Shown: one piece after another, positions 1 to 21,772 of the stretch | Numbering within the stretch: the first letter of the stretch is position 1 | Layout of the letters: each line of letters opens with the position of its first letter | Source: a virus | Lineage: Duplodnaviria; Caudoviricetes | IMG/VR virus record: IMGVR_UViG_3300049488_000018 | Location: 7,279-71,278 of that record | Length of the DNA: 64,000 bases | Reading direction: 5' to 3' (one strand) | Program-made: the position numbers and the translations under genes | The notes under the pieces: model-generated | What the model was told of the DNA's origin: nothing | The model's database searches: none | The model's input: the letters and a program-made list of their open reading frames with translations, nothing else

Positions 1-537
1 AACGTCAGCCATAACAGCTGAGTAATGCTCGGTCCAGTAATTGGAACCCTTGGTAACCTTGTCAACCATGGCGAAGTTATCAACTTCCCACTTAACAAGC
101 TCACCATAGAGCTCGTCATGGATCTGATAACCAGGGCCGGCGATGTCGCAGTGTGTAGGCCAAATGCAAAGCGGATAACGCTTGTTGTTCTCCAGGTGCT
201 CAACGTACTCAGTTGCACGCTTAAGCATACCAGGATGCCGGGTGATGAATTTGCCAGATTTCACATCAGCCGCGCTGATAATCGTGAAAGGCGAAGGGGA
301 CTTGCCGGTAGCTGCTTCAACCCAAAAGATTGGGTGAGCAATGTCGATCTGATGATGGCTGTCAAGTGTGATATGGATATCGTCGATCTTACCGCCAAGA
401 CGGTTGATCATCAGAGCCAGTCGCTTCATGTCGTTGTCTGCGCCTTCTACATACAGCGCACCGGTCGGTTTGCAGAAATCTACCTGCGGATCAATAATCA
501 GAAGTTGAAGATTTGTTTTGCCCAATTGAGCCTCCAT
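1..537 (-). CDS. pncA: Nicotinamidase / isochorismatase-family cysteine hydrolase (PncA-like), 3'-truncated by the window edge
   Basis: Not in the ORF track; translated by hand. ATG at 537 overlaps the kinase TAA (alternative TTG at 525 after GGAGG). Reads GKTNLQLLIIDPQVDFCKPTGALYVEGA..ITLDSH..AHPIFW..IWPTHC..KGSNYWTEHYSA, containing the DxQxDF, DxH, WPxHC and KG motifs. The catalytic Cys would lie beyond position 1. Confidence 0.85.
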   Translation of the reverse strand, partial: MEAQLGKTNLQLLIIDPQVDFCKPTGALYVEGADNDMKRLALMINRLGGKIDDIHITLDSHHQIDIAHPIFWVEAATGKSPSPFTIISAADVKSGKFITRHPGMLKRATEYVEHLENNKRYPLCIWPTHCDIAGPGYQIHDELYGELVKWEVDNFAMVDKVTKGSNYWTEHYSAVMADV

Positions 538-2219
538 TATTTTTTCATTGAGAATTTATAAAGCTTTGAACCTTGTCTTACCATTATTGTTGATGCACTC
601 CGAGTTAGCTTCATATCGTGCGTAACTGCTGGATCTTTCACAACTTTTATATCCGGCCTGTCAATTCTGTTAGAGAAGATATGAACCTCATCTTCATTAG
701 TGATACGAACACATATCCCATTCTCCATAACAACAAAGTTAGGTACATGTAGCCCTGTATCTTCTTCCAGAGTTAGCTTATAGCTAGATAAATCAGGAGC
801 AAACTTGAACATGAATGTATCAAATTTACCACCTTTAGCAGCTACAACTGAAGCAACACAATTCTCATACTTAGCTTCGAGAACCTGATACCCTTGTAAT
901 TCTTTTACTTGGAACTGAGAGCAGGCAGTCTTACCACTTGCTGTTCTGTAGAACAACATGAAATAAGGCACACCAAGAATGTTCTGATACACTAGCCCAT
1001 TAAAGAGCTTAGTAGCATTTGATAGAACACTCCATGTCATCTTAATAGACGGGAATACTTTATCTCCCATCTCATCAAGCTCAACAACAGAGAGCTTATC
1101 ATCATTCTTGATGTATATTGAGTTACCAATAACCATCTTCTCTTCAGCTGCCATATTGAACCAATTGCCAACAGAACTTTCCAAATGTAACATTCCGTCT
1201 TTTACATATGCAGCAACTGGTACACTTGATATCGGAGACTCAACAATCTCCATTCCATCATGCAAGGAAATACTATGCCTTCCCTTAGTGGCAAACTGCG
1301 TTGAGTAGGTCCATCCATTAACGAAGCCTTTTATAGGATATAGAGAATCCACAATTAGCTCCAGTACGAACTGATTACTTGCAATGATAGGTATGATTCT
1401 TGGTGCACTCTGAATGATAGTGCCGGCACTATTAGGAGGAGCAATACGCTCACCTTTCTCAAGGACGCGCATTAACCATTCTTTATATGCCTGTGGCACT
1501 TCATCTACCGATCTTACCGCAGAAGGAAGACGTACATCCTTATTGAAGATAGACACGTTAGCCTTCATTCGGCCTTCCATATCAGACTTCTTATAGTCAG
1601 GATGTGTGCCTTTATATGGATGTATACCCATAAAGAGCTGAGTCGCTATTACAGCAAAAGAGAACCAATCAGTCATCTCATTAAACTTAAGAGAATGATG
1701 ATCACGTATCGAGGCCATTATAGCCGTAGCTGGGAAACTAGGAGTCTGCCAGCTATCTACATCAATGAAGTATGGAACAGTAAATGACTTCATATCCACC
1801 AGATAGTTCATCTCATTGCCATCAACAATAAGACATCCATTCTTATGTATATACGATGTATCTACAACCATACGTTCTACTAGTGTAGATGTAACTTTAT
1901 TGTCAATATTGAACCGGTTACGAAAGTCATTAGTGAACAGCTTACAAAGCGCCACTGTATCCTTCTGCCAGTCCATTGTAAAGCCAATAGGTTGTTTGTT
2001 TGTATCAAGAATCACATTCTTAGGATTCAGAATGTTATCCTGAGTTAGCTTCTGAAGTTCATCTATCTTCGAAAGAGGAATCATCTTTCTAGGCTCAGAG
2101 TAGATCTTATAGATCACATTCCCTTTACCGTAGATCTTACCTTCACCACCTTCGGCAATAAACTCCTTATCTGTAAGGTTTGCCTCGTTTGGCTTTCCAT
2201 CTCTTATAAATACTTTCAA
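537..2219 (-). CDS. Atypical Ser/Thr protein kinase (YegI/TerY-triad type) with ~290-aa C-terminal extension
   Basis: Gly-rich loop AEGGEGKIY, IYKIY lysine, catalytic loop IVDGNEMNYLV, FIDVDSWQ in place of DFG, TDWFSFAV, GIHPYKG. TTG start at 2219 after GGAGG. Confidence 0.9.
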   Translation of the reverse strand: MKVFIRDGKPNEANLTDKEFIAEGGEGKIYGKGNVIYKIYSEPRKMIPLSKIDELQKLTQDNILNPKNVILDTNKQPIGFTMDWQKDTVALCKLFTNDFRNRFNIDNKVTSTLVERMVVDTSYIHKNGCLIVDGNEMNYLVDMKSFTVPYFIDVDSWQTPSFPATAIMASIRDHHSLKFNEMTDWFSFAVIATQLFMGIHPYKGTHPDYKKSDMEGRMKANVSIFNKDVRLPSAVRSVDEVPQAYKEWLMRVLEKGERIAPPNSAGTIIQSAPRIIPIIASNQFVLELIVDSLYPIKGFVNGWTYSTQFATKGRHSISLHDGMEIVESPISSVPVAAYVKDGMLHLESSVGNWFNMAAEEKMVIGNSIYIKNDDKLSVVELDEMGDKVFPSIKMTWSVLSNATKLFNGLVYQNILGVPYFMLFYRTASGKTACSQFQVKELQGYQVLEAKYENCVASVVAAKGGKFDTFMFKFAPDLSSYKLTLEEDTGLHVPNFVVMENGICVRITNEDEVHIFSNRIDRPDIKVVKDPAVTHDMKLTRSASTIMVRQGSKLYKFSMKK

Positions 2220-2355
2220 TAGAACCTCCAAACACAATGATGAGATAGATTACGAAGATTGTTACAGGAATCCACCAGATACGGAAGAGAATCTCCCAAT
2301 TAACTTGGCGTTCCAACACCCACAACTGCCACAGTGTCATATTGCTCAAGTCCAT
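2167..2355 (-). CDS. Small single-pass membrane protein
   Basis: GGAG then ATG; hydrophobic stretch IWWIPVTIFVIYLIIVFGG followed by a basic tail; overlaps the kinase start. Confidence 0.5.
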   Translation of the reverse strand: MDLSNMTLWQLWVLERQVNWEILFRIWWIPVTIFVIYLIIVFGGSIESIYKRWKAKRGKPYR

Positions 2356-2587
2356 AAGGTTCTCCTCTGTCATCTAAGATAGATTGGATTATGCGAACAT
2401 AATCCGATTTAATATGATGTTGTGTTCTGAGTATTGCCTGAAGGTGATCAGTTTTAAGGTTCTTAAGTTTCTTAATCTTAAGTGGACCTTTACCTTTTGG
2501 GCCATATGTACCCCAGGTAGCAACCTTTTTTGCATCATTCAGCGTGCATTGGATATGAACAAGATCATTGATAATATCAATACTCAA
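2300..2587 (-). CDS. Hypothetical phage protein
   Basis: ORF with a WGTYGPKG..L..L..DHL.AIL pattern; TTG start after GGAGG. Confidence 0.7.
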   Translation of the reverse strand: MSIDIINDLVHIQCTLNDAKKVATWGTYGPKGKGPLKIKKLKNLKTDHLQAILRTQHHIKSDYVRIIQSILDDRGEPYGLEQYDTVAVVGVGTPS

Positions 2588-2811
2588 GACATCCTCCGCA
2601 TGCAACGATCAATTGTTTCTTTATCAGCTTTGCCTATTACAGCGAGCCGAGCAATTTGTTCATCATCAAGACATGACCATTTCATATCACTTGATTCAGA
2701 TACAAGGATAAGTGGCTCAACTTGCATAACGACTGCATGTGGATATATACCAGAACCACAATGTAATGGATATCTTGAGTCTGTAGTTGCTACGAGATCT
2801 CCTCGTTTCAT
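2584..2811 (-). CDS. Hypothetical protein (75 aa)
   Basis: Fits the tightly packed minus-strand operon; GGAG upstream. Confidence 0.7.
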   Translation of the reverse strand: MKRGDLVATTDSRYPLHCGSGIYPHAVVMQVEPLILVSESSDMKWSCLDDEQIARLAVIGKADKETIDRCMRRMS

Positions 2812-2821
2812 ACATTCTCCC

Positions 2822-3304
2822 TTACTTTGGATTGGACATGGCCTTAGGTGCCTTCATAGGGCCACCGACTTTCTTTTCTTTAGCCGGTTCAGCCACTTTC
2901 TGAACTTCAATTACTTCAAGCTCTTGGCATGGGAGCCAAGTATCTTCAAGCATGGAGCCCTTGATTAACTCAGGTGACTGAACACCAATACGCACACAGC
3001 CATTGATCCATGTATTAACACCGACCACAAGGCCTTTAAACCCTGTGTTCACATGTTTAACATTATCACCATTACGGATAGTATTACAAACCGGAGAAGT
3101 AATAGGTACATCAGTACCTTCTACGAATTCAAGATGTGTTACATCAAACCAGAACCCCTCTTTAGGTGTTCCGTCATCTTTGAGTTCACGAGGTGTGAGA
3201 ATAGCACGGTCACAGTTACTGAGATGAACCGCATATGCAGTTACGAGCCCAGTAAATCCAGTTACAAGATCTTTGGCAATTACGCCTAATTTTACAACGC
3301 TCAT
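2822..3304 (-). CDS. Hypothetical protein made of two tandem copies of a ~65-aa SH3-like domain
   Basis: KLGVIAKDLVTGFTGLVTAYAVHLSNCDR versus RNGDNVKHVNTGFKGLVVGVNTWINGCVR. Confidence 0.75.
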   Translation of the reverse strand: MSVVKLGVIAKDLVTGFTGLVTAYAVHLSNCDRAILTPRELKDDGTPKEGFWFDVTHLEFVEGTDVPITSPVCNTIRNGDNVKHVNTGFKGLVVGVNTWINGCVRIGVQSPELIKGSMLEDTWLPCQELEVIEVQKVAEPAKEKKVGGPMKAPKAMSNPK

Positions 3305-4098
3305 ACATTCTCCTTGAATAAGATGCAGGACATACCAAGGTCGTCCTGATGAAATACTTTATGCTCTTTCTCGAGTAGCTCACAATGCTTAACTGCGCGC
3401 CTTTTAAGGAATTCACCAGCTGTCCCCTTAAACGCTATAAACGCCCTGTAGACGTCAACAGCCTTAAGGTATGGGCCTTGGGCACCATGAAAGGTATCAA
3501 GGCCATCAGAGGTCAATATGATAGCTCCTGGAGCTACTTTATGTGCGATATCAAGCGGCCAGTTATAATTGTAGTCATGATTGGCTATTAAATCACCATC
3601 TTTCCACAATTTGATAGTTAAACCACCATCACCGAACTGTTGCTTGTATGCTTTCTCTCTGTCTTTATTAAGCCAGTAAGAGAGATAGTATGGAGCACCA
3701 CTTGGGAATGAATGTTCAGCTAAGAATACACTGTCACCAAAGTCCTCAATGATATAGCCATCACCATAGCAATAGCTATAACATTTAGATCCATGAACAG
3801 CAGTAACCATCAATGTAGCGTCAAGGCAAGAGATATCAAGTCCAAGATTCTGCCTTGTCATATCAGCATACTGTATAACTGTTCTGCCAAAGGCTTCACG
3901 GCCAAGCTCCATGAAAGATAAAAACCTCCTCGCTGTAATAGCGAGGATACGAGCGCCTATGTCTGTGTCTTTGGATGATGAACAACCATCACATACAATA
4001 GCGAAATGAATGCCATCCTGTACACCAGCGAGTGTATAGTCCTGACATACCTTATGACTCTTCCCAATCAGAAAGAGATTGTCTGTTTGTATATCCAC
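3301..4098 (-). CDS. PP2C-like protein phosphatase (YegK/TerY-triad type)
   Basis: GKSH..CQDY, AIVCDGCSS, ILTSDGL and DDL motifs; GTG start at 4098 after AAGGAG. Confidence 0.9.
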   Translation of the reverse strand: MDIQTDNLFLIGKSHKVCQDYTLAGVQDGIHFAIVCDGCSSSKDTDIGARILAITARRFLSFMELGREAFGRTVIQYADMTRQNLGLDISCLDATLMVTAVHGSKCYSYCYGDGYIIEDFGDSVFLAEHSFPSGAPYYLSYWLNKDREKAYKQQFGDGGLTIKLWKDGDLIANHDYNYNWPLDIAHKVAPGAIILTSDGLDTFHGAQGPYLKAVDVYRAFIAFKGTAGEFLKRRAVKHCELLEKEHKVFHQDDLGMSCILFKENV

Positions 4099-4111
4099 GT
4101 TAGCTCCTTCT

Positions 4112-4651
4112 TTATAATTGGTATAAGAAAATTTCCCTACCATGCGCGACTGAAGCGTTCTCAATGATTCCCTCCACCATCTTCCATTCACCATTAGCTA
4201 AACCACAGCCAATACCATATGGAAGGCCAATCTTAAAAAGTGTACCTTCTCGTAGTTTCTTCCAGGCAGTATGCAATCTTGGTGGTCCACCAGCAGCATT
4301 ATAAATTGCCTTTTCACGTTCTTTCACGTTAAGTAACATACGATTGATAGCGGCACCTAAGGCATGATAGTCAGTATAAAGCACATTGAATCTTCCAAAG
4401 TGTAACTGGCCATAGAGATTATAACAAAAGATAGCACGATCAAGATTGCAACTAGTGTTATATCCTCTTGTGAACGTACCAAGTTTTTCTCTTGGAGTTC
4501 TATCATCATCCTTAAATGCTTGATATGCTTCAGGAAATTGTAAACGGATTTGTTTAGCGATACCACTGCCCATTACGCCTTGGCAATTACACTGATGAGC
4601 AATGATATCACAATCGCTTTTAAGCAAATCACCTTTGACTATAGTGAGCAT
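4112..4651 (-). CDS. Macrodomain protein (ADP-ribose binding/hydrolase, Poa1p/DarG-like class)
   Basis: KGDLL..IAHQCNCQGVMGSGIAKQIR..FP and IGLPYGIGCGLANGEW motifs. Confidence 0.9.
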   Translation of the reverse strand: MLTIVKGDLLKSDCDIIAHQCNCQGVMGSGIAKQIRLQFPEAYQAFKDDDRTPREKLGTFTRGYNTSCNLDRAIFCYNLYGQLHFGRFNVLYTDYHALGAAINRMLLNVKEREKAIYNAAGGPPRLHTAWKKLREGTLFKIGLPYGIGCGLANGEWKMVEGIIENASVAHGREIFLYQL

Positions 4652-4920
4652 TAGTTTTCTCCTGAGTTAGCCTTAAATGTACTACGGGCAGCATCAAGAC
4701 GTGTTAGCTGGCCAGGGACAAGTATCCTTATCGTTTTAAGAAATTCTCTTAATCCTGCTTCATGAGGTTTCATATATGCAGTACCAAGCTTCTCATAAAA
4801 TGCTTTGATAAATGCATCATCCCCATATCCAGCAAGTGCATCTAAAGCACGCGTTTCAGCTTCTGATAACTTAACAGTAAGCTCAAAGTGAATTTGTGGT
4901 TCTGCACTTATTTTAGCCAT
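4651..4920 (-). CDS. Hypothetical phage protein (89 aa)
   Basis: ATG at 4920 after GAGGGG; overlaps both neighbours. Confidence 0.7.
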   Translation of the reverse strand: MAKISAEPQIHFELTVKLSEAETRALDALAGYGDDAFIKAFYEKLGTAYMKPHEAGLREFLKTIRILVPGQLTRLDAARSTFKANSGEN

Positions 4921-5440
4921 GGCTAAATATCCCCTCAACTTTCTTATGAACTGGATGTCTGTTGCAGAAGGCCTCATACATCTTTTCTTCTACCCACCGG
5001 TTAGGTTGGATATTAGGATTGTCGGCCTGAAACATATAGCCATTGACATCACAAAAGTGTTGAGCAAAAGATGCAATAGCACCACTACGACAAACACCAG
5101 CATGACAATGTACAATGAGAAGATTATTCTTTTCATCTTTATGCCAATCCTCGAGAAACTCAAAGATATCATCAGCTTGTCTCGAGTCCATAAATTTATC
5201 TGCGAGCAGATGAGATAGGTTACGAGTAGCTTTAGGAGTTGTATCATCAAAATGCAATGACAACAATCTACCATTGTCCTTAAGTTCTTCTTCCTTAAAC
5301 AAAGGAGCAAAGTCAGAATTTTGAATACTGATCATTAGGATATTATCCCAATCACCATATTGTGAAAATGTGTTATTGAGTACTTCTTTCTTGATAAGAG
5401 TAGCCAATGAAAGAGGTACAGCTTTTATTTTCTTTATCAA
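4913..5440 (-). CDS. Tyrosine / dual-specificity protein phosphatase (Cys-based PTP family)
   Basis: P-loop LIVHCHAGVCRSGAIA (HCx5R), upstream LHFDD acid loop, downstream PN motif; TTG start after GGAGG. Confidence 0.9.
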   Translation of the reverse strand: MIKKIKAVPLSLATLIKKEVLNNTFSQYGDWDNILMISIQNSDFAPLFKEEELKDNGRLLSLHFDDTTPKATRNLSHLLADKFMDSRQADDIFEFLEDWHKDEKNNLLIVHCHAGVCRSGAIASFAQHFCDVNGYMFQADNPNIQPNRWVEEKMYEAFCNRHPVHKKVEGIFSHG

Positions 5441-5518
5441 GGAGTCCTCCTATAAAAAGTAATGTAACTGTTTGTAATGCGCACATCAGTAAAACAAAAC
5501 CAATAAACTTTAATTCGC

Positions 5519-5905
5519 TCATGGATAATGCTCCCTTGGTGGATTGCGGTCATACATCATACGCCACATATCATGTGATTCTGTAATATTATACAGTATC
5601 TCAGCATGTGAATGGATGAACTCAACCATACTTTCAAGTTGCGCCATAGTAATTCCGTTCAAGCGAATATACACAGTGCCATGATTATATGATTTATACA
5701 TACCATCAATTCGTTCATATTTATGTTTTGTATTATATCGAGTGCTGTAGCCACGTGACTCAGCTACATTCATAGCTGCTTTCATATAGCAATTAACCAG
5801 CTCACTATTACCAGGATCAGGCATCAATATTCTGCCTGGATCATACGGCTTAGTTGCTGTCTTACACTCAATCTTAATTCTTTGAAACGGTGCTTTCTCT
5901 GCCAT
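5519..5905 (-). CDS. Hypothetical protein, member 1 of a local paralogue family
   Basis: CYMKAAMNV ... MVEFIHSHAEILY. Confidence 0.75.
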   Translation of the reverse strand: MAEKAPFQRIKIECKTATKPYDPGRILMPDPGNSELVNCYMKAAMNVAESRGYSTRYNTKHKYERIDGMYKSYNHGTVYIRLNGITMAQLESMVEFIHSHAEILYNITESHDMWRMMYDRNPPREHYP

Positions 5906-6303
5906 TACCGGAGTCTCCAGTCATATTGCAAGATACTCGAGCTTAGCTGTCTACCTTGACATTGACAAAATTCAAATAGTCTTTCAGCACCAGCATGTAT
6001 CTCTTCAACATGTTTTAATAATGTAGTAGCACTTGGTGCTCTGAGGTGATCCTCAGTATCAAATACTACATATGGAAGTTTTTCAGCTTCTCTGTCTTTT
6101 TTGCCACGAGCGGGGAAGCGTTCATGCCTACCAGTGCCAACATAAAACAATAGCACTTCTTTGCATACACGAAGATAGCATAAAGCTATAGGATCATGTT
6201 CGATACTTCTACCTTTAAAATCAATTACATAGCAGCTTTTCTTAAACTCTTCTATGTATTCGATCTCAAGCTTCCGCCTCCTTCTGAATGGTATTAGTGC
6301 CAT
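5905..6303 (-). CDS. Hypothetical protein, member 2 of the paralogue family
   Basis: CYLRVCKEV ... HVEEIHAGAERLF. Confidence 0.75.
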   Translation of the reverse strand: MALIPFRRRRKLEIEYIEEFKKSCYVIDFKGRSIEHDPIALCYLRVCKEVLLFYVGTGRHERFPARGKKDREAEKLPYVVFDTEDHLRAPSATTLLKHVEEIHAGAERLFEFCQCQGRQLSSSILQYDWRLR

Positions 6304-6634
6304 TTTTGAATTCCTCTGCTTCTGTAAGATAAGCTTCTACGAAATTATGTAAGCAGTCTAGAATTGTACGAACTCTAGTCTCTGTTATGTCCAAGTCAAA
6401 GTTAATACGAATGCCTCTTGGGCTAGCTCCCATGGCACAATGTAGACCATGCTCATTAACAAGCCAGCTATTCCAATATTCATTTTCAAAATGCGTACAA
6501 CACATTACTTTATATATCATAGGCATATCTGTCTCAATGATCATGTATGCTCTATGACTTATCTTTTTTTGTTGACCAGGTTTAACAAACCAGTCTTCTT
6601 CCTCTTCAGTTGCTACTAGTGTTCTTGGTCGCAT
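6266..6634 (-). CDS. Hypothetical protein (possible distant paralogue)
   Basis: GAGGT then ATG; C-terminal ILDCLHNFVEAYL. Confidence 0.7.
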   Translation of the reverse strand: MRPRTLVATEEEEDWFVKPGQQKKISHRAYMIIETDMPMIYKVMCCTHFENEYWNSWLVNEHGLHCAMGASPRGIRINFDLDITETRVRTILDCLHNFVEAYLTEAEEFKNGTNTIQKEAEA

Positions 6635-6645
6635 AAATACCTCGA

Positions 6646-6664
6646 GGGGCCCATTATAGGCCCC
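6646..6664 (-). promoter_or_regulatory. GC-rich intergenic hairpin with TATAATG loop
   Basis: Minus strand GGGGCC-TATAATG-GGCCCC, immediately before the RBS of 6266..6634. Confidence 0.4.
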
Positions 6665-6679
6665 CCCTATCAGGTTGTA

Positions 6680-7051
6680 TTAAGCTTCTTTGGGCAGAGG
6701 AACAGGTGGTTTACCTTTTATCCATGCCCCATCGGCTTTCTTTTGTACGGGTAATGACTTCTTGATAGAAGCCAAAGTGTGCTCTGAGCAATCGGGACAA
6801 ACGCACGTACGTGAATGAACCCATTTGGTTCTCCACTCAGGCTTCATCTCTTTGCCATCACCGATCATCAGTGAGTCAAGGAAGCCACCAGCTTTAACCA
6901 TTGAGGTATTAACTGGTGCTCCCATCGTCCAGACCTGAACCTTTTTAATAGGATCAACTTGGACGCCGCCGGACTTCAGACAGAGAATTGCTTTCTCGAT
7001 CTTAGTCATGTTCTTAGAATCGTTAGGGAAAAGTCCCTTTCGTTCAGCCAT
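6680..7051 (-). CDS. Hypothetical protein with CxCxxC motif
   Basis: HSRTCVCPDC. Confidence 0.75.
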   Translation of the reverse strand: MAERKGLFPNDSKNMTKIEKAILCLKSGGVQVDPIKKVQVWTMGAPVNTSMVKAGGFLDSLMIGDGKEMKPEWRTKWVHSRTCVCPDCSEHTLASIKKSLPVQKKADGAWIKGKPPVPLPKEA

Positions 7052-7580
7052 TTGTTATTGCCTCGACAGCCAGATTGACCGCTTTCTTTTCTGCAAGTTT
7101 TTTGAAGAACACTTCCACCAGTTCCTGATGGTCAGCGTAGTACAATGTTGCCCATTCAGGCAGCTTATACTCTTTGAAGAACCGCTCAGCACGGCCAATG
7201 AACACAGCCAGGTCAGTAGCAATTGAATCAGGGAATAGATTCTTTACTACTTCAACACTTGTCTGTGAAATAGGACGCATACGAATGCCTTTCACGTCAA
7301 CATATTGACGCAGTTCATCAATACCATTCGTGGTATCAATAACCTTGCGGAAATATGGATCACGCTCGACATAAGCGAGTGACCGGTTAAATGCGATATC
7401 TTCTGCTGTAATAGCGTCAAAGACATCAGTCTTAGAGCACAGTGAGTAACCGATACCGATTCCTCCCATACCACCTGGCATTGCCTGAGCATACATTACG
7501 CCTACGCGTACCATTTGTCCGGCTCGCCGCCTCTTGATGAACTGTTTCAGTTCAAACGGTTTTGTTTTCGTGTCACCCAT
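7044..7580 (-). CDS. Phage protein, possibly N4 gp49/Sf6 gp66-like
   Basis: IGYSLCSKTDVFD...IAFNR resembles the G.S.C...D.F.....IA..R motif. Confidence 0.55.
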   Translation of the reverse strand: MGDTKTKPFELKQFIKRRRAGQMVRVGVMYAQAMPGGMGGIGIGYSLCSKTDVFDAITAEDIAFNRSLAYVERDPYFRKVIDTTNGIDELRQYVDVKGIRMRPISQTSVEVVKNLFPDSIATDLAVFIGRAERFFKEYKLPEWATLYYADHQELVEVFFKKLAEKKAVNLAVEAITNG

Positions 7581-7776
7581 CAGGTAACTCCTTTCTTTCT
7601 GCGCGCAATCTGCGTCGCTCTGTTTCTTGCTTACCTGAATAAGCTTTCATACCAGCGTACTTATTACCTTTTCTTACGCCGATCTTACGTTCAGGTATCA
7701 TGGACATAGGCCCTACAACTGAGTCCATTGCCGCTGCCATTGCAAGTAATGTTGCTGCTGTCATGTTTCTGCTCAA
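7573..7776 (-). CDS. Hypothetical protein (67 aa)
   Basis: GGAGG then TTG start. Confidence 0.65.
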   Translation of the reverse strand: MSRNMTAATLLAMAAAMDSVVGPMSMIPERKIGVRKGNKYAGMKAYSGKQETERRRLRAERKELPDG

Positions 7777-7791
7777 GGTTAGCCTCCCTTC

Positions 7792-8538
7792 TTATGTGAA
7801 CCGGATCTTATCATCAGGCTGAGCTTTGAAGTTATAAACTTCTTCCAAAGCCTGCAAATAAGTTTTCTTGTGAACCTGCTGTTTTACTTTCCCTGATTGG
7901 TAAGCAATCTTGGAAATCATACGCTTTGGCTTATAAGCCGCATTATTCATGATATCCATGATAGCGTATATAAATTCACGATGCTTATAGAATGATGGAA
8001 AATAGTCACTAAATTCAAAAACATGATTAGCAACTCTTGTGGCAAACTTTAGATCTTTGATCTTGAATGTGCCAAGCTTGAACATGGAAAGAAGTATATT
8101 AGCTCGCTCGCCATTTGACATCAACGCGATACACGTAGATACTGGGAACTTATATTCTTCCATAAATTTCCTGAAAACTATATAGTCAGCATATTCTGCA
8201 TCAGCATATGCATTCATAAAGTTCTCAAGAGTCCATGCCTTTTGAAGAGAGTTAATTGCAATTTCCTCAAGGAATGAGGTTGTAGAGTTAACGAGATAGT
8301 GAAATTCTGCATCACACTCTAATGCCGCAAAGTATCTATGATGGCCATCGAGTATTACTCTTTGAGCATCAACGATTATTGCTTTAGTAGGAATAAAACC
8401 ATAATCATGTATGCTTTTTACAATATGAGCATATTGTTCACGATCATCTTGCTTTATCCGGTTGATGGCATTTGGAAAGATAACTCCTTCACCTTTGCCT
8501 TTACATAATACATGTCTTCGTTCTTGTGCCATTGGCAT
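7792..8538 (-). CDS. ParB/Srx N-terminal-domain protein
   Basis: IVKSIHDYGFIPTKAIIVD..RVILDGHHRYFAA. Confidence 0.8.
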   Translation of the reverse strand: MPMAQERRHVLCKGKGEGVIFPNAINRIKQDDREQYAHIVKSIHDYGFIPTKAIIVDAQRVILDGHHRYFAALECDAEFHYLVNSTTSFLEEIAINSLQKAWTLENFMNAYADAEYADYIVFRKFMEEYKFPVSTCIALMSNGERANILLSMFKLGTFKIKDLKFATRVANHVFEFSDYFPSFYKHREFIYAIMDIMNNAAYKPKRMISKIAYQSGKVKQQVHKKTYLQALEEVYNFKAQPDDKIRFT

Positions 8539-15044: not shown

Positions 15045-15331
15045 AAGAGCTCACCTCCAAACTTTTTTGCTTTCTTAGCTCCTACCTTTGTACAAATATA
15101 CACAATAGATAGAAAGCCGAATGTAATTGAAGCACCTAACGCTATTGTGCCATCAGCGATTGCCAGTGTGCGTGCTGCTAGTGCACCAAGAGCAAAGTCG
15201 GTTAACAAGAGTGTCAGGTTGTTATAGTTGATTGTCCTCTTGATCCAACGTGGGAGGAAGAGAATAATTACGAACTTGGAAATGAATAACATTGTCCCAA
15301 GGATAATGCCAACCCATAACACTTGCATCAT
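15023..15331 (-). CDS. Membrane protein (about 3 TM)
   Basis: Hydrophobic segments; GGAGG RBS. Confidence 0.7.
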   Translation of the reverse strand: MMQVLWVGIILGTMLFISKFVIILFLPRWIKRTINYNNLTLLLTDFALGALAARTLAIADGTIALGASITFGFLSIVYICTKVGAKKAKKFGGELLCTSARY

Positions 15332-15552
15332 AAGAAGTCTCCTCCTTTCTTGAGATAGCGTCTGAACAATAGTTTTGTTAACCAGTCAGACTCATGTGTT
15401 TCTCTTGCTATTTGATAAGCAAGAGCTCTGCGTTGATTCTCGAGGTCTTTCAAGCGTTTATATTTACCTGGTGAGAAGTTACAAACCACCCAAGCAATGG
15501 GTAGAAGAACAATACAGGTTAATACTGTAGCTAGTATGGCTAGTATTGCCAT
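15328..15552 (-). CDS. Small membrane protein (74 aa)
   Basis: AAGGAGGT RBS; N-terminal TM. Confidence 0.7.
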   Translation of the reverse strand: MAILAILATVLTCIVLLPIAWVVCNFSPGKYKRLKDLENQRRALAYQIARETHESDWLTKLLFRRYLKKGGDFL

Positions 15553-15559
15553 TACAGAC

Positions 15560-15775
15560 CTCCTTCCGAGAAATTGGTGGAGAGCTTTGATTCGGACACC
15601 GCTGCGCATAACACGGTGCTGCTCCCCTTACCTTCTGCCTATAGCCTGACATCAATATGTGTCGGGGCCACTATGCCCATTATAGGTGTCGCATGGGCTA
15701 GACGGGGTCAGGGATCTACTGTACACTCGGCAGTGCCAGGTCGCGCTGTAGTCTTTACCCCGTAGCTCTTCAAAG
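15560..15775 (-). other. Structured intergenic segment (candidate cis-regulatory or small RNA)
   Basis: Helices 15703-15708/15757-15762 and 15675-15680/15693-15698; CACT-GCCG-AGTG hairpin. Confidence 0.4.
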
Positions 15776-18796: not shown

Positions 18797-21772
18797 TTAG
18801 TCCATCTGGGACAGAGCAATAGCAGCCTTGATGGCTTCCTTATCAGCAGCCTTCTGACGGTTGAGCTGGAGAGCAGCCTTGATCTCCTCCATATGAGGAT
18901 TCACGCAAGGGAACTCACCACGTGCCACAGCGCGCTTGTTGATGAGCTCAGCCAGGTACAGAGTGGCTTCCTCAAGCACGTTCCAGATAGCCCCACCAGT
19001 CTTAGCGTAAGGCTGTGTGGTTTCCTCACCAGCATCGTTCAGCATCGGCTTAGTACCACGACCAAAGCCCTTAACACCGAGAGCAACAGCCAACTGACGC
19101 TGGTACTGGATAGATGCAGGGCACTCAGCATCCGTGAACATATTAACCATCTTCTGGTTGATGAGTGAACGATGAGTTTCCTTGAGCAGACCAAAGGCCT
19201 CTTTACGCTCATCTTCTGGGTAGGAGAGATACTTGATACTCTCAGCCTTGTGATTGTTAGCCATCCAAACAGCCATCTCGTTAACAGATGCCCAGTTGAA
19301 TGCATACACACCACCCTTGGCATGATTGGCCTGAATCTCCTTCTGCAGGTTGTTGCACTGCAGGAACAGCCACTCAGAGTCATTGATATCGGAGTTCTTC
19401 TCGATACCCTTGATACCCTTCATAGCCACGAAGAAATCATGGTAAGGATGATCAGCGTGTGGCTTGGCATCATTGATGAGCTTGATGCGCTCCAAGAAGC
19501 GACCAGTATCCTTGAGGTAAGGCTTACCAGCATCCTTACGCAGCAGGCGGTAAGTGAGAGGAGCATTCTTAAGCTCAGCCATCTTACCATTGACACCGTA
19601 GGTCTTAACGATCTCAGCCTTGGCATCATCAGCGACACCAGCATCAGTATGCTTGAGTCCATCAATAGCATCCTGGCGCAACTGAGAAAGAACCATGAGT
19701 TCAAGCACAGTCATGGGATTACCCATGTACATACGCTCCTCAATGATCTGGCGAGTAGTGAGGTCGAGGCTACCAGTATCGGCAGCAGACTTCAGTACGG
19801 ACAGTCCAACAGACATATGCTCATTGAGATATGCCTCCATGGTTGGCAGCTTAGCAGGGAACTGCTTAGCGGTCTTAGCCTCAGGCACAGGACGGCGGAG
19901 GCACTGGAACATACGATCACTCGTATTAGCGATGAGTGTCTCGTACTTAATGGTATCGCCATCCACATCCCCATACATGGAGTAGATAGCCTGCCACGAC
20001 ATGAGTATCGCATCGTGAGAGTCATTGAAGCCAGCAACAATGAAGGTCATGAGATTGGAAGGCCCAACGTTCGGGTCACGTCCAAGGTCAATCTTGTCAC
20101 CAATAGCAATCTTGCCCACAAACTTTGCAGTCTTAGGCAGAGTGCAGTAGTACTGGAGTTTGCCAGTCTCAGCTTCGAGAGCATTCTCCTTGGCATCGAG
20201 AGTATCGCAGCCCTGGATATAGTAACCATCCTTGTCAATCTGGACCTTGATACCGTTGTCCTTGTAGTAGGACTCGAGGCGAGAGTACAGGGAATCGCGG
20301 AACATGCGAGGTGCTTTCCATCCACCATTGATGTAGCGACTGAACATGAGCTTAACAGGCACGCCAAGAGCATCTTCCCAACGTGCATCCTCATCAGCAG
20401 TGAGAACCTTGAGGATGGCTTCCAACTCCAACTCAGCAGCATGCTTGATGGTCTCAGCCTTGTCCAAGATACCGTGGCCGTTGAGAACCTCGCGAGTCCT
20501 CTGCATATCACTGTTAGCAACACACTGTGCACCCATGGACGAAGACCAGGACTTCATCTTGGTCTTGACATTGCGGATGTTGGTGATAGGGATCTCCAGA
20601 ATATCCCCATGCTTGTAATTCCAAGCGAGAGTCTTGAGGTTATCCTTCGTGATGAAGGCATCCTGGGTTTCAGGGGCATAGCCATGACGTTCACACTTGC
20701 GCATGTACTCATTGTCATCGGCATACACCTTAGCCTTGATGGCAGGCATAACCTTACCAGCCACATCGAAACCAGAGGCACGCATCTGCCAGTTACGGTT
20801 AATCTTCTTAACCTTGGCATTAGGCTTAGGCAGACCAGTGCTGTGGTCGATGTCAGCATGACGCCAGAACTCCATCCACACCTTAGTGATGATGTCACCA
20901 TCATTCTCAGGGTAGCCACCAATGGTGAGCTGTGCATCCAGTACACGGAACTTCATGGTCTGGATGTTGGAGTACTCAGGCTTGATCTCAATGCCAGTAG
21001 GAGTCATGATCGGCAGGATCACTTTCCAGAGGTTGAGCGCACGGACATCGCACCCAAAGAAGGCATCCCAATCACGCTTAGGCAGTACGCCCATCACGCA
21101 ATCCTCCTTCTTGATATTCCCAACTGCTATACGAATGTCGTCACCAGTCTTACCATTGGCAACGTCATTCTTTGTGAGCTCACGCAGATAGCGCTGGAGA
21201 CACGCAGCCTTATCACCGGCATCCTTGGATGCAATGGTGACAAACTTGATGCCAGGGATATTGCGGAAAGCAGAGGCCTTAGCAACCTCGATGTCACCAT
21301 TCTTGGCTACAATGGTGTCCACTACACGTACCTTGCGACCATCCTGGATAATGTGCTTGTAGATTGGCCAAATGACCAGTCCTCTTACCTTCTCGGTCTG
21401 AGGCTGGAGCTGTACGCCACCAATGGTGGGACGGAACTGCTTGGACTTCATGTGTTTGTTCTTCATGGTGCGTGCCTCCTTAGGGCGTGTTGGTACCACA
21501 ACAGCGGGTGTGGTGTTCCCGTTAGGCAACTCGAGCGCATCGAGATTGGCCATCATCTGGTTAACATCATCTATAGTGATAGAGCCCTTAGGATCTGTTC
21601 CAAGAGCTACAACTGTGGCCATGAGCTCATGCTCTTTGGCCAGTTTGAAGAGCCTGTCCTGGATCCACTCAGGAAGGGCAAGGACCTCATCATCAGATGC
21701 AGATGTGAGGAATTCGTGTGCTGCTGCCGGTGACAAGACGGCTGTTGTTGAGTCGGGACGTGTGGATGACAT
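18797..21772 (-). CDS. Single-subunit two-barrel (DPBB) RNA polymerase, YonO/RdRP-like
   Basis: Catalytic GDVDGD at about aa 601-606 (nt 19955-19972), RxP motif GRDPN ~37 aa upstream, WQMR..IKAK at about aa 328-347, and ITKDNLK ~25 aa further; spacing matches two-barrel polymerases. Confidence 0.85.
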   Translation of the reverse strand: MSSTRPDSTTAVLSPAAAHEFLTSASDDEVLALPEWIQDRLFKLAKEHELMATVVALGTDPKGSITIDDVNQMMANLDALELPNGNTTPAVVVPTRPKEARTMKNKHMKSKQFRPTIGGVQLQPQTEKVRGLVIWPIYKHIIQDGRKVRVVDTIVAKNGDIEVAKASAFRNIPGIKFVTIASKDAGDKAACLQRYLRELTKNDVANGKTGDDIRIAVGNIKKEDCVMGVLPKRDWDAFFGCDVRALNLWKVILPIMTPTGIEIKPEYSNIQTMKFRVLDAQLTIGGYPENDGDIITKVWMEFWRHADIDHSTGLPKPNAKVKKINRNWQMRASGFDVAGKVMPAIKAKVYADDNEYMRKCERHGYAPETQDAFITKDNLKTLAWNYKHGDILEIPITNIRNVKTKMKSWSSSMGAQCVANSDMQRTREVLNGHGILDKAETIKHAAELELEAILKVLTADEDARWEDALGVPVKLMFSRYINGGWKAPRMFRDSLYSRLESYYKDNGIKVQIDKDGYYIQGCDTLDAKENALEAETGKLQYYCTLPKTAKFVGKIAIGDKIDLGRDPNVGPSNLMTFIVAGFNDSHDAILMSWQAIYSMYGDVDGDTIKYETLIANTSDRMFQCLRRPVPEAKTAKQFPAKLPTMEAYLNEHMSVGLSVLKSAADTGSLDLTTRQIIEERMYMGNPMTVLELMVLSQLRQDAIDGLKHTDAGVADDAKAEIVKTYGVNGKMAELKNAPLTYRLLRKDAGKPYLKDTGRFLERIKLINDAKPHADHPYHDFFVAMKGIKGIEKNSDINDSEWLFLQCNNLQKEIQANHAKGGVYAFNWASVNEMAVWMANNHKAESIKYLSYPEDERKEAFGLLKETHRSLINQKMVNMFTDAECPASIQYQRQLAVALGVKGFGRGTKPMLNDAGEETTQPYAKTGGAIWNVLEEATLYLAELINKRAVARGEFPCVNPHMEEIKAALQLNRQKAADKEAIKAAIALSQMD

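Follow-up and report, generated by a model that had tools for sequence, protein, structure and literature searches.

We analyzed a 64,000-nucleotide stretch of viral DNA (the window), which corresponds to bases 7279-71278 of the 71,278-base IMG/VR virus contig IMGVR_UViG_3300049488_000018. CheckV put the completeness of this contig at about 44% of the genome. The contig codes for a large terminase and tail-fiber-like proteins and is very distant from cultured phages; a megablast search with window positions 1-8000 returned no match among cultured and deposited phages. An uninterrupted run of open reading frames (ORFs) on the minus strand spans window positions 1-5440. Part of this run, together with one gene beyond the window edge, forms a tetrad that encodes a PP2C-type phosphatase, a protein kinase, a nicotinamidase, and a von Willebrand factor A (vWA) protein. 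A preliminary description of this DNA had instead grouped five enzymes of the run into a single functional unit.

Three members of the tetrad lie in the window, all on the minus strand. The PP2C-type Ser/Thr phosphatase is encoded at positions 3301-4194, and a YegI-like Ser/Thr kinase of 566 amino acids (aa) with a C-terminal beta-propeller at positions 537-2237. The gene for the PncA-type nicotinamidase is cut by the window edge, so that positions 1-537 cover only the N-terminal 179 of its 274 aa. The complete gene is found at L002:6991-7815, where L002 denotes the contig sequence including the 7.3 kb ahead of the window (window position equals L002 position minus 7278). The fourth member, a TerY-like vWA protein of 253 aa with a complete MIDAS motif, is encoded on the same strand at L002:4777-5538. 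Its gene is located about 1.7 kb past the window edge, beyond a transfer-messenger RNA (tmRNA).

The preliminary description had read the run as a series of coupled minus-strand genes, and this held up: every ORF was found in its place, and the junctions were tight or overlapping. The stop codon of the kinase gene overlaps the start of the nicotinamidase gene by 1 nucleotide (nt), as does the stop of a 108-aa ORF the start of a macrodomain gene. The PP2C gene and a 160-aa ORF share an ATGA-type overlap of 4 nt, and a gap of 10 nt with a ribosome-binding site separates the 160-aa ORF from a 75-aa ORF. The other junctions have longer nominal overlaps, which depend on the start codon chosen. Promoter-like sites were not enriched (16 versus 21.3 in shuffled sequences). 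Terminator-like sites were enriched (14 versus 5.7), yet none was found at an operon boundary. The domain identities proposed earlier for the five enzymes, namely a protein tyrosine phosphatase (PTP), a macrodomain, PP2C, a YegI-like kinase, and a nicotinamidase, were each supported by profile, motif, or fold evidence.

The conserved unit comprises four genes

Related loci were collected through the kinase. A scan of IMG/VR for close relatives with the single kinase sequence gave no match, but an alignment-based scan did find relatives, matching 157 IMG/VR contigs and 134 GTDB contigs. More than 1258 kinase homologs were found, with about 40% identity along the full length. The comparison set consisted of 80 IMG/VR loci and 80 GTDB genome loci, each with 10-kb flanks, and the related loci totaled 165 (85 viral and 80 genome loci). 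The six-frame ORFs of these loci were searched by jackhmmer with every protein of the window operon as a query. Neighboring genes were identified by all-against-all clustering of the ORFs, followed by Pfam searches with cluster representatives.

Three proteins accompanied the kinase almost invariably. Of the 85 viral loci, 84 had PP2C near the kinase, 80 had the nicotinamidase, and 80 had the vWA protein, with all of these genes on one strand. Within the 10-kb flanks of the kinase, only 3-4 viral loci had the macrodomain, one had the PTP, and none had the small ORFs of the window; neither the macrodomain nor the PTP was found there in any of the 80 genome loci. Thus, the conserved unit is the tetrad of PP2C, kinase, nicotinamidase, and vWA protein. 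The gene-neighborhood association suggested in the preliminary description therefore stood for PP2C and the nicotinamidase and failed for the macrodomain and the PTP.

The order nicotinamidase-vWA-PP2C-kinase prevailed, being present in 61 of the 85 viral and 36 of the 80 genome loci. The order in the contig studied here, PP2C-kinase-nicotinamidase-vWA, is a rotation of it that was shared by about 6 loci. The tetrad is built from two adjacent pairs, with a median gap of 20 nt between nicotinamidase and vWA genes and of 4 nt between PP2C and kinase genes. All four genes were present in 27 of the 34 genome loci that were fully flanked. Four large phage-like contigs with a kinase homolog carried the tetrad without a macrodomain; in only one of them, the closest relative (L003), whose kinase is 68% identical, did an ORF of PTP size adjoin PP2C. 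Among INPHARED records, only three carried the kinase, all of them uncultured huge phages.

These counts bear directly on the proposal that the five enzymes work jointly in a single, integrated operon for post-translational modification and NAD (nicotinamide adenine dinucleotide) counter-defense. All five genes are co-oriented and joined by tight or overlapping junctions, and the PTP gene is directly upstream of the PP2C gene in L003 as well. Moreover, ADP-ribose erasers recur near the tetrad (NADAR in 23 loci, the macrodomain in 3-4), and the macrodomain could fill the same thematic slot. However, tight gene packing is the norm throughout the early region of this phage and is therefore not specific evidence for a five-enzyme unit. 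The macrodomain family is common as a stand-alone phage gene, with 1,873 phage records that lack the tetrad, as against the three INPHARED records of the kinase. In LR745208, the only other INPHARED record with a PTP homolog, that homolog is about 100 kb from the kinase. We consider such an integrated operon very unlikely. The idea of a phosphate writer, two erasers, and an ADP-ribose reader working in concert had local adjacency as its basis, and the grouping of the five enzymes reflects, for the most part, the chance packing of genes at this locus.

In a tree of the kinase homologs, the window sequence was placed among viral sequences, and the labels (viral or genome) had to change at least 11 times along the tree. 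Three tetrad loci came from metagenome-assembled genomes (MAGs) binned as Thorarchaeota (L006), Thermoplasmatales (L093), and Promethearchaeota (L098). In L006, the tetrad is surrounded by gyrase/topoisomerase, DNA methylase, and Mre11/Rad50-like genes, which are typical of huge phages. Because of these neighbors, L006 is probably viral DNA that was mis-binned.

Kinase, phosphatase, and vWA protein form a TerY-P-like triad

The kinase was barely detected by Pfam (E = 0.01), and a phmmer search against the sequences of the PDB found no match. Its alignment with 41 homologs nevertheless showed the residues G30-G31-E32-G33, K44, H131, D139, and D159 to be invariant and E60 and N144 to be nearly so. 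Profile comparison by hhalign matched it to Escherichia coli YegI over 242 columns (96.7%, E = 4e-10). In an AlphaFold2 model with a pLDDT score (predicted value of the local distance difference test) of 90.2, residues 1-275 adopt a protein-kinase fold and residues 290-566 an all-beta propeller. When the whole chain was searched with Foldseek, the kinase-WD40 part of LRRK2 was the best match, and the kinase domain matched CDK, BRAF, and ASK1.

PP2C matched Pfam PP2C_2 with an E value of 8.2e-9 (35.7 bits versus a cutoff of 24). The metal-binding aspartate motifs D35, D52-G53, D128-G129, D213-G214, and D267-D268 were invariant in 39 homologs. The true start of this protein is probably an internal ATG, giving a length of 280 aa.

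The vWA protein was recognized by Pfam VWA_2 (E = 1.7e-4 for the protein of this phage). Within its family, 9 of 41 members matched Pfam VWA, the best of them with an E value of 7e-9; a search of the PDB sequences with the family profile gave no match. The MIDAS residues D50, S54, T118, and D154 were invariant in 41 homologs. The protein ends in a serine-rich tail (FVSxSISSQSQ...), in which S232, S234, and S239 are invariant. In one locus, from a Chthonomonadaceae MAG (L132:8053-9945), a single frame matches both vWA and PP2C, being either a possible fusion or a frameshifted pair.

The three proteins have a known counterpart. The TerY-P triad, as cited in PMC11090510 from Anantharaman, Iyer, and Aravind (2012), consists of a TerY-like vWA protein, PP2C, and a kinase whose C terminus carries a zinc ribbon. 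The E. coli triad yegL-pphC-yegI and the tetrad have the same three types of protein in one operon, including a YegI-like kinase, and the vWA protein completes a TerY-P-like triad with PP2C and the kinase. The preliminary description had named the kinase and PP2C as two members of such a triad; the match to YegI and the near-constant presence of PP2C beside the kinase agree with this assignment, and the third member was found just outside the window. The tetrad departs from TerY-P triads in several respects. The C terminus of its kinase is modeled as a beta-propeller rather than a zinc ribbon or OB fold, it has the nicotinamidase as a fixed fourth member, and its neighbors are NAD-salvage genes and NrtR rather than restriction or tellurite genes.

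The nicotinamidase and NAD-salvage genes accompany the triad

The 274-aa protein has the hallmarks of a nicotinamidase. Its catalytic triad (D16, K163, and C213) and metal site (D59, H61, H68, and H129) were invariant in 41 homologs, and its profile matched solved nicotinamidases (2h0r, E = 5.9e-15). The AlphaFold2 model of the protein has a pLDDT score of 93.5. In a Foldseek search with this model, the first 14 distinct PDB entries were all nicotinamidases or pyrazinamidases, with target-normalized template-modeling scores of 0.73-0.82 (0.51 for a longer Drosophila chain). The family is a divergent long subfamily with a conserved insert of about 55 aa.

Genes of NAD metabolism were frequent neighbors of the tetrad. 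The most common was NrtR, a protein with Nudix and winged-helix domains, which was found in 44 loci, followed by PncB in 38, NadE in 27, NADAR in 23, a NadD-like adenylyltransferase in 19, a NadV-like protein in 11, and NAD-dependent DNA ligase in 10. At least one neighbor of this type was present in 56 of the 85 viral loci. The NAD genes were in many cases intermingled with those of the tetrad, in the same orientation, as in the order PncA*-vWA-PncB-NadE-PP2C-NadD-kinase in L057 and NadV-NadE-PncA*-vWA-PP2C-kinase-NrtR-NadD in another relative. A link between phospho-signaling and NAD metabolism, as the preliminary description had claimed, is apparent and strongly conserved in the gene neighborhoods, both from the constant nicotinamidase and from the salvage genes interleaved in relatives. 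The same context, in which PncB, NadD, and NadE adjoin homologs of the 274-aa protein, supports the predicted hydrolysis of nicotinamide to nicotinate by this protein.

The tetrad was also seen beside PncB on chromosomes of Armatimonadota. In the 6.2-Mb chromosome of a member of the Capsulimonadaceae (Armatimonadota; L103), PncB directly follows the kinase of the tetrad, and the flanks contain genes for a BlaR1-type peptidase, a sigma factor, and a GGDEF protein. The tetrad is thus found outside phages as well, here in a cellular gene context. The locus was also considered as a defense island; this was rejected, as the genes around it are PncB and ordinary cellular ones.

A neighborhood of another kind was seen in a 306-kb phage contig, where NADAR and an Anti-Pycsar Apyc1-type metallo-beta-lactamase are encoded 2-3 kb upstream of the tetrad (L005:3042-4225). 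This is an anti-defense neighborhood.

Embedding among metabolic genes raises the question of whether proteins are the substrates of the kinase and PP2C at all. The two could instead act on a small molecule, the tetrad being a pathway for a phosphorylated pyridine or ribosyl compound with the vWA protein as a metal-dependent accessory. Protein-kinase-like folds do include small-molecule kinases, and the nicotinamidase carries a conserved insert. Nonetheless, the nearest fold and profile matches of the kinase are true protein kinases (YegI, LRRK2, CDK, and BRAF), PP2C enzymes are protein phosphatases, and the combination of vWA protein, PP2C, and kinase is the defining signature of the protein-phosphorylating TerY-P triad (PMC11090510). 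The serine-rich tail of the vWA protein would also be suited as a phospho-acceptor. A small-molecule pathway is the least probable of the readings considered here.

The tetrad could also be a conflict system of the TerY-P type, acting in defense, superinfection exclusion, or abortive infection, with the nicotinamidase as an effector or sensor that, for example, drains or senses nicotinamide, rather than as a regulated salvage enzyme. TerY-P-like triads whose kinase carries an OB fold are described as stand-alone anti-phage systems (Gao et al. 2020; PMC11090510), and TerY-P is also found alongside CoCoNuT restriction systems (PMC11090510). The tetrad moves between phages and bacteria, judging from the label switches in the kinase tree, and anti-defense genes are found near it in some phages (Apyc1 and NADAR in L005). 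Against this stands the nature of its recurrent neighbors, which are biosynthetic genes (PncB, NadD, and NadE) and NrtR, not nucleases or other effectors. Furthermore, the Armatimonadota locus has ordinary cellular flanks, and no defense model of PADLOC matches the kinase, PP2C, the vWA protein, or the nicotinamidase. A conflict system therefore seems unlikely to us.

Proposed role of the tetrad

The reading that we favor, and judge to be reasonably probable, is that the tetrad is a TerY-P-like phospho-switch hard-wired to a nicotinamidase-first, deamidating (Preiss-Handler) route of NAD+ salvage, with the PTP, the macrodomain, and the small ORFs as separate, lineage-specific accessories. The kinase and PP2C would write and erase phosphate on a protein of the tetrad, the likeliest target being the vWA tail or the nicotinamidase. 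With its three invariant serines (S232, S234, and S239), the vWA tail would be the most attractive phospho-acceptor. The propeller of the kinase may serve as the input domain. The vWA protein, which adjoins the nicotinamidase, would couple the phospho-state to the activity or assembly of the enzyme, and in this way the phospho-state would gate the conversion of nicotinamide to nicotinate through the vWA adaptor. Rebuilding of NAD+ would be switched on while NAD+ is consumed or cleaved during infection, plausibly as a response to NAD+-cleaving defenses. In the phage fragment studied here, which carries no PncB, NadD, or NadE, nicotinate would be handed to host enzymes.

Several findings weigh against this reading. 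Seven of the 34 fully flanked genome loci are without one or more members of the tetrad. The module is also loosened in this phage, where four small ORFs lie between PP2C and the kinase and the nicotinamidase is set apart from the vWA protein by about 1.45 kb that includes the tmRNA. In hhalign comparisons, PP2C and the vWA protein have weak similarity to E. coli PphC (72%, E = 3e-5) and YegL (38.8%, E = 3e-4), respectively. The search with PADLOC models returned no TerY-P or other defense system for the kinase, PP2C, and the vWA protein (E ≤ 0.1) or for the nicotinamidase. The last of these proteins scores below curated cutoffs, with 19.2 bits versus 27 for Pfam Isochorismatase and 25.5 bits versus 174 for NCBIfam PncA; given these low scores and the insert, it could conceivably act on another amide substrate. 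Profiles built from the relatives detected no PncB, NadE, NadD, NadV, NrtR, NADAR, or LigA on the 71-kb contig, which represents about 44% of the genome, so that the NAD context in this phage is inherited by homology only. The analysis shows the gene content and order, the conservation, the catalytic residues, the folds, and the NAD neighborhood; we infer the phosphorylation partners and the control of the nicotinamidase, and a role in counter-defense is plausible.

The favored salvage route has precedents in bacteria and phages. Clusters of pncB, nadD, and nadE have been described in jumbo phages (PMC11662467), in a paper in which the word "kinase" does not occur. As in bacterial PncA/PncB Preiss-Handler salvage and these phage clusters, the 274-aa protein has a nicotinamidase fold, catalytic triad, and metal site, and the copies in its relatives lie with PncB, NadD, and NadE. 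It differs in belonging to a long subfamily that comes with a vWA protein and a kinase/phosphatase pair, and the other genes of the pathway are not on this contig.

Phages are also known to reconstitute NAD+ by the pathways NARP1-3, which use ADPR-PP and Namat, Nampt and Nmnat, or PnuC and NadR (bioRxiv 10.1101/2024.02.11.579819; PMC13464706). Like the proposed function of the tetrad, these pathways employ phage enzymes that rebuild NAD+ from its breakdown products, which offers a plausible selective reason for the presence of the tetrad in phages. None of them uses a nicotinamidase, a word absent from the papers retrieved on them, and their abstracts name no switch made of a kinase, phosphatase, and vWA protein. 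The 71-kb contig, which covers about 44% of the genome, had no NAPRTase/Nampt-like or NadD-like gene; no separate search was made for Adps, NadR, or PnuC.

TerY-P triads and NAD+ salvage by phages are thus already known, and the new element is the fixed attachment of a nicotinamidase to a triad of the TerY-P-like type. In the searchable literature, nothing joins pncA or NrtR with a kinase, PP2C, and a vWA protein, and no published description of the tetrad was found. Two surveys from the Aravind laboratory, which cover jumbo phages and viral NAD/ADP-ribose systems, make no mention of PP2C, TerY, or isochorismatase.

The depletion of NAD+ is a major anti-phage strategy of bacteria. It is possible, if rather doubtful, that the PP2C/propeller-kinase/vWA trio senses NAD+ cleavage or the state of infection and turns on NAD+ rebuilding by the deamidating route that the nicotinamidase initiates. 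Phages would then have a fourth way of countering NAD+-depleting immunity, the first in which phospho-regulation is built in, and the trio would be a general control layer of NAD salvage shared with Armatimonadota, Acidobacteriota, and other bacteria. The tetrad occurs in more than 150 huge-phage contigs and in bacterial chromosomes, and it provides TerY-P-type triads with a concrete and assayable metabolic partner. Of the genes discussed for this window, those that merit testing are the four of the tetrad, including the one beyond the window edge.

Accessory genes in and around the tetrad

The PTP, the macrodomain, and the five small ORFs are lineage-specific accessory early genes in and around the tetrad rather than conserved partners. 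They are co-oriented and probably co-transcribed with it.

The first gene of the run encodes a phosphatase of 175 aa that resembles dual-specificity phosphatases (DSPs) and PTPs (positions 4913-5440, minus strand). It starts with TTG, upstream of which there is a good ribosome-binding site (TAGGAGG). The protein was matched by Pfam Y_phosphatase (E = 1.2e-4; 22.2 bits versus a cutoff of 20.9), and its P-loop, HCHAGVCRS, fits the HCX5R(S) signature (H111-C112-HAGVC-R118-S119). Its nearest solved relatives are DSPs of the poxvirus VH1 type (E = 1e-3). The next ORF, of 108 aa (positions 4651-4977, minus strand), had no match in Pfam or PHROG and no homolog in the 165 related loci.

The macrodomain protein (179 aa; positions 4112-4651, minus strand) is predicted to be a stand-alone domain of the Poa1p/DarG type. 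It belongs to phrog_335 (E = 1.8e-41), contains NCQGVMGSGIA and IGCGLANG as candidate ADP-ribose-binding loops, and remained below the Pfam Macro cutoff (E = 0.024; 15 versus 22 bits). Yeast Poa1p, an ADP-ribose 1''-phosphate phosphatase (6lfu), was matched over residues 2-167 with an E value of 3.8e-8. The DarG models of PADLOC (E = 3e-14) and NCBIfam (E = 7e-12) were matched by residues 1-51 only, the PADLOC model having 329 positions.

Orphan ADP-ribose erasers of phages include the AdfN NADARs directed against DarTG1 (PMC11825919) and a DarG2-like macrodomain antitoxin of chimalliviruses (PMC13309987). Like them, the macrodomain described here stands alone, and it matches the N-terminal macrodomain of DarG; this likeness is one of sequence resemblance only. 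It differs from DarG in having no C-terminal DarT-binding domain, and its best full-length match is Poa1p. A PADLOC scan of 10 proteins, not including the 108-aa ORF that adjoins the macrodomain, returned no match to DarT. The protein is a probable ADP-ribose eraser, of the type of the orphan antitoxins.

Four ORFs on the minus strand occupy the space between PP2C and the kinase. The 160-aa protein (positions 2822-3304) matched phrog_16275 in two stretches (E = 2.3e-23), that is, it contains two copies of a phage domain of about 60 aa. It is followed by the 75-aa ORF (positions 2584-2811), a 101-aa ORF (positions 2300-2605), and a hydrophobic ORF of 68 aa with a transmembrane segment (positions 2167-2373). 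Among these last three, only the 75-aa ORF had a match in PHROG (phrog_17597, E = 2e-10). Homologs of these four proteins were found in none of the related loci.

In L003, the kinase and the nicotinamidase are separated by a gene on the opposite strand that resembles LAGLIDADG-type homing endonucleases (L003:11772-12596). In this phage lineage, the tetrad's junctions appear to be hot spots of insertion.

Other features of the contig

Elsewhere in the window, an ORF of 991 aa on the minus strand (positions 18797-21772), which had been flagged earlier as a possible single-subunit RNA polymerase, had no match in PHROG at E ≤ 1e-5. Upstream of the vWA gene, a 121-aa ORF rich in glycine, arginine, and serine (L002:5465-5830, minus strand) is mirrored by an ORF on the plus strand and has no homolog in the related loci. 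It is probably not a gene.

The tmRNA between the nicotinamidase and vWA genes is encoded at L002:6457-6867 on the minus strand, about 0.4-0.8 kb ahead of window position 1. It was identified by Rfam RF00023 with 131.5 bits, and ARAGORN predicted the tag peptide AKNTVVKAVKAVASFGVADTFVAVRMAA. The stretch of about 380 nt directly after it (L002:6073-6456, minus strand) is free of ORFs; it had no match in Rfam, and its predicted fold was no better than those of shuffled sequences (z = 0.57). The closest relative has a tmRNA (L003:14863-15289) and a tRNA at the same place, and its positions 15290-15726 are 71% identical to the ORF-free stretch.

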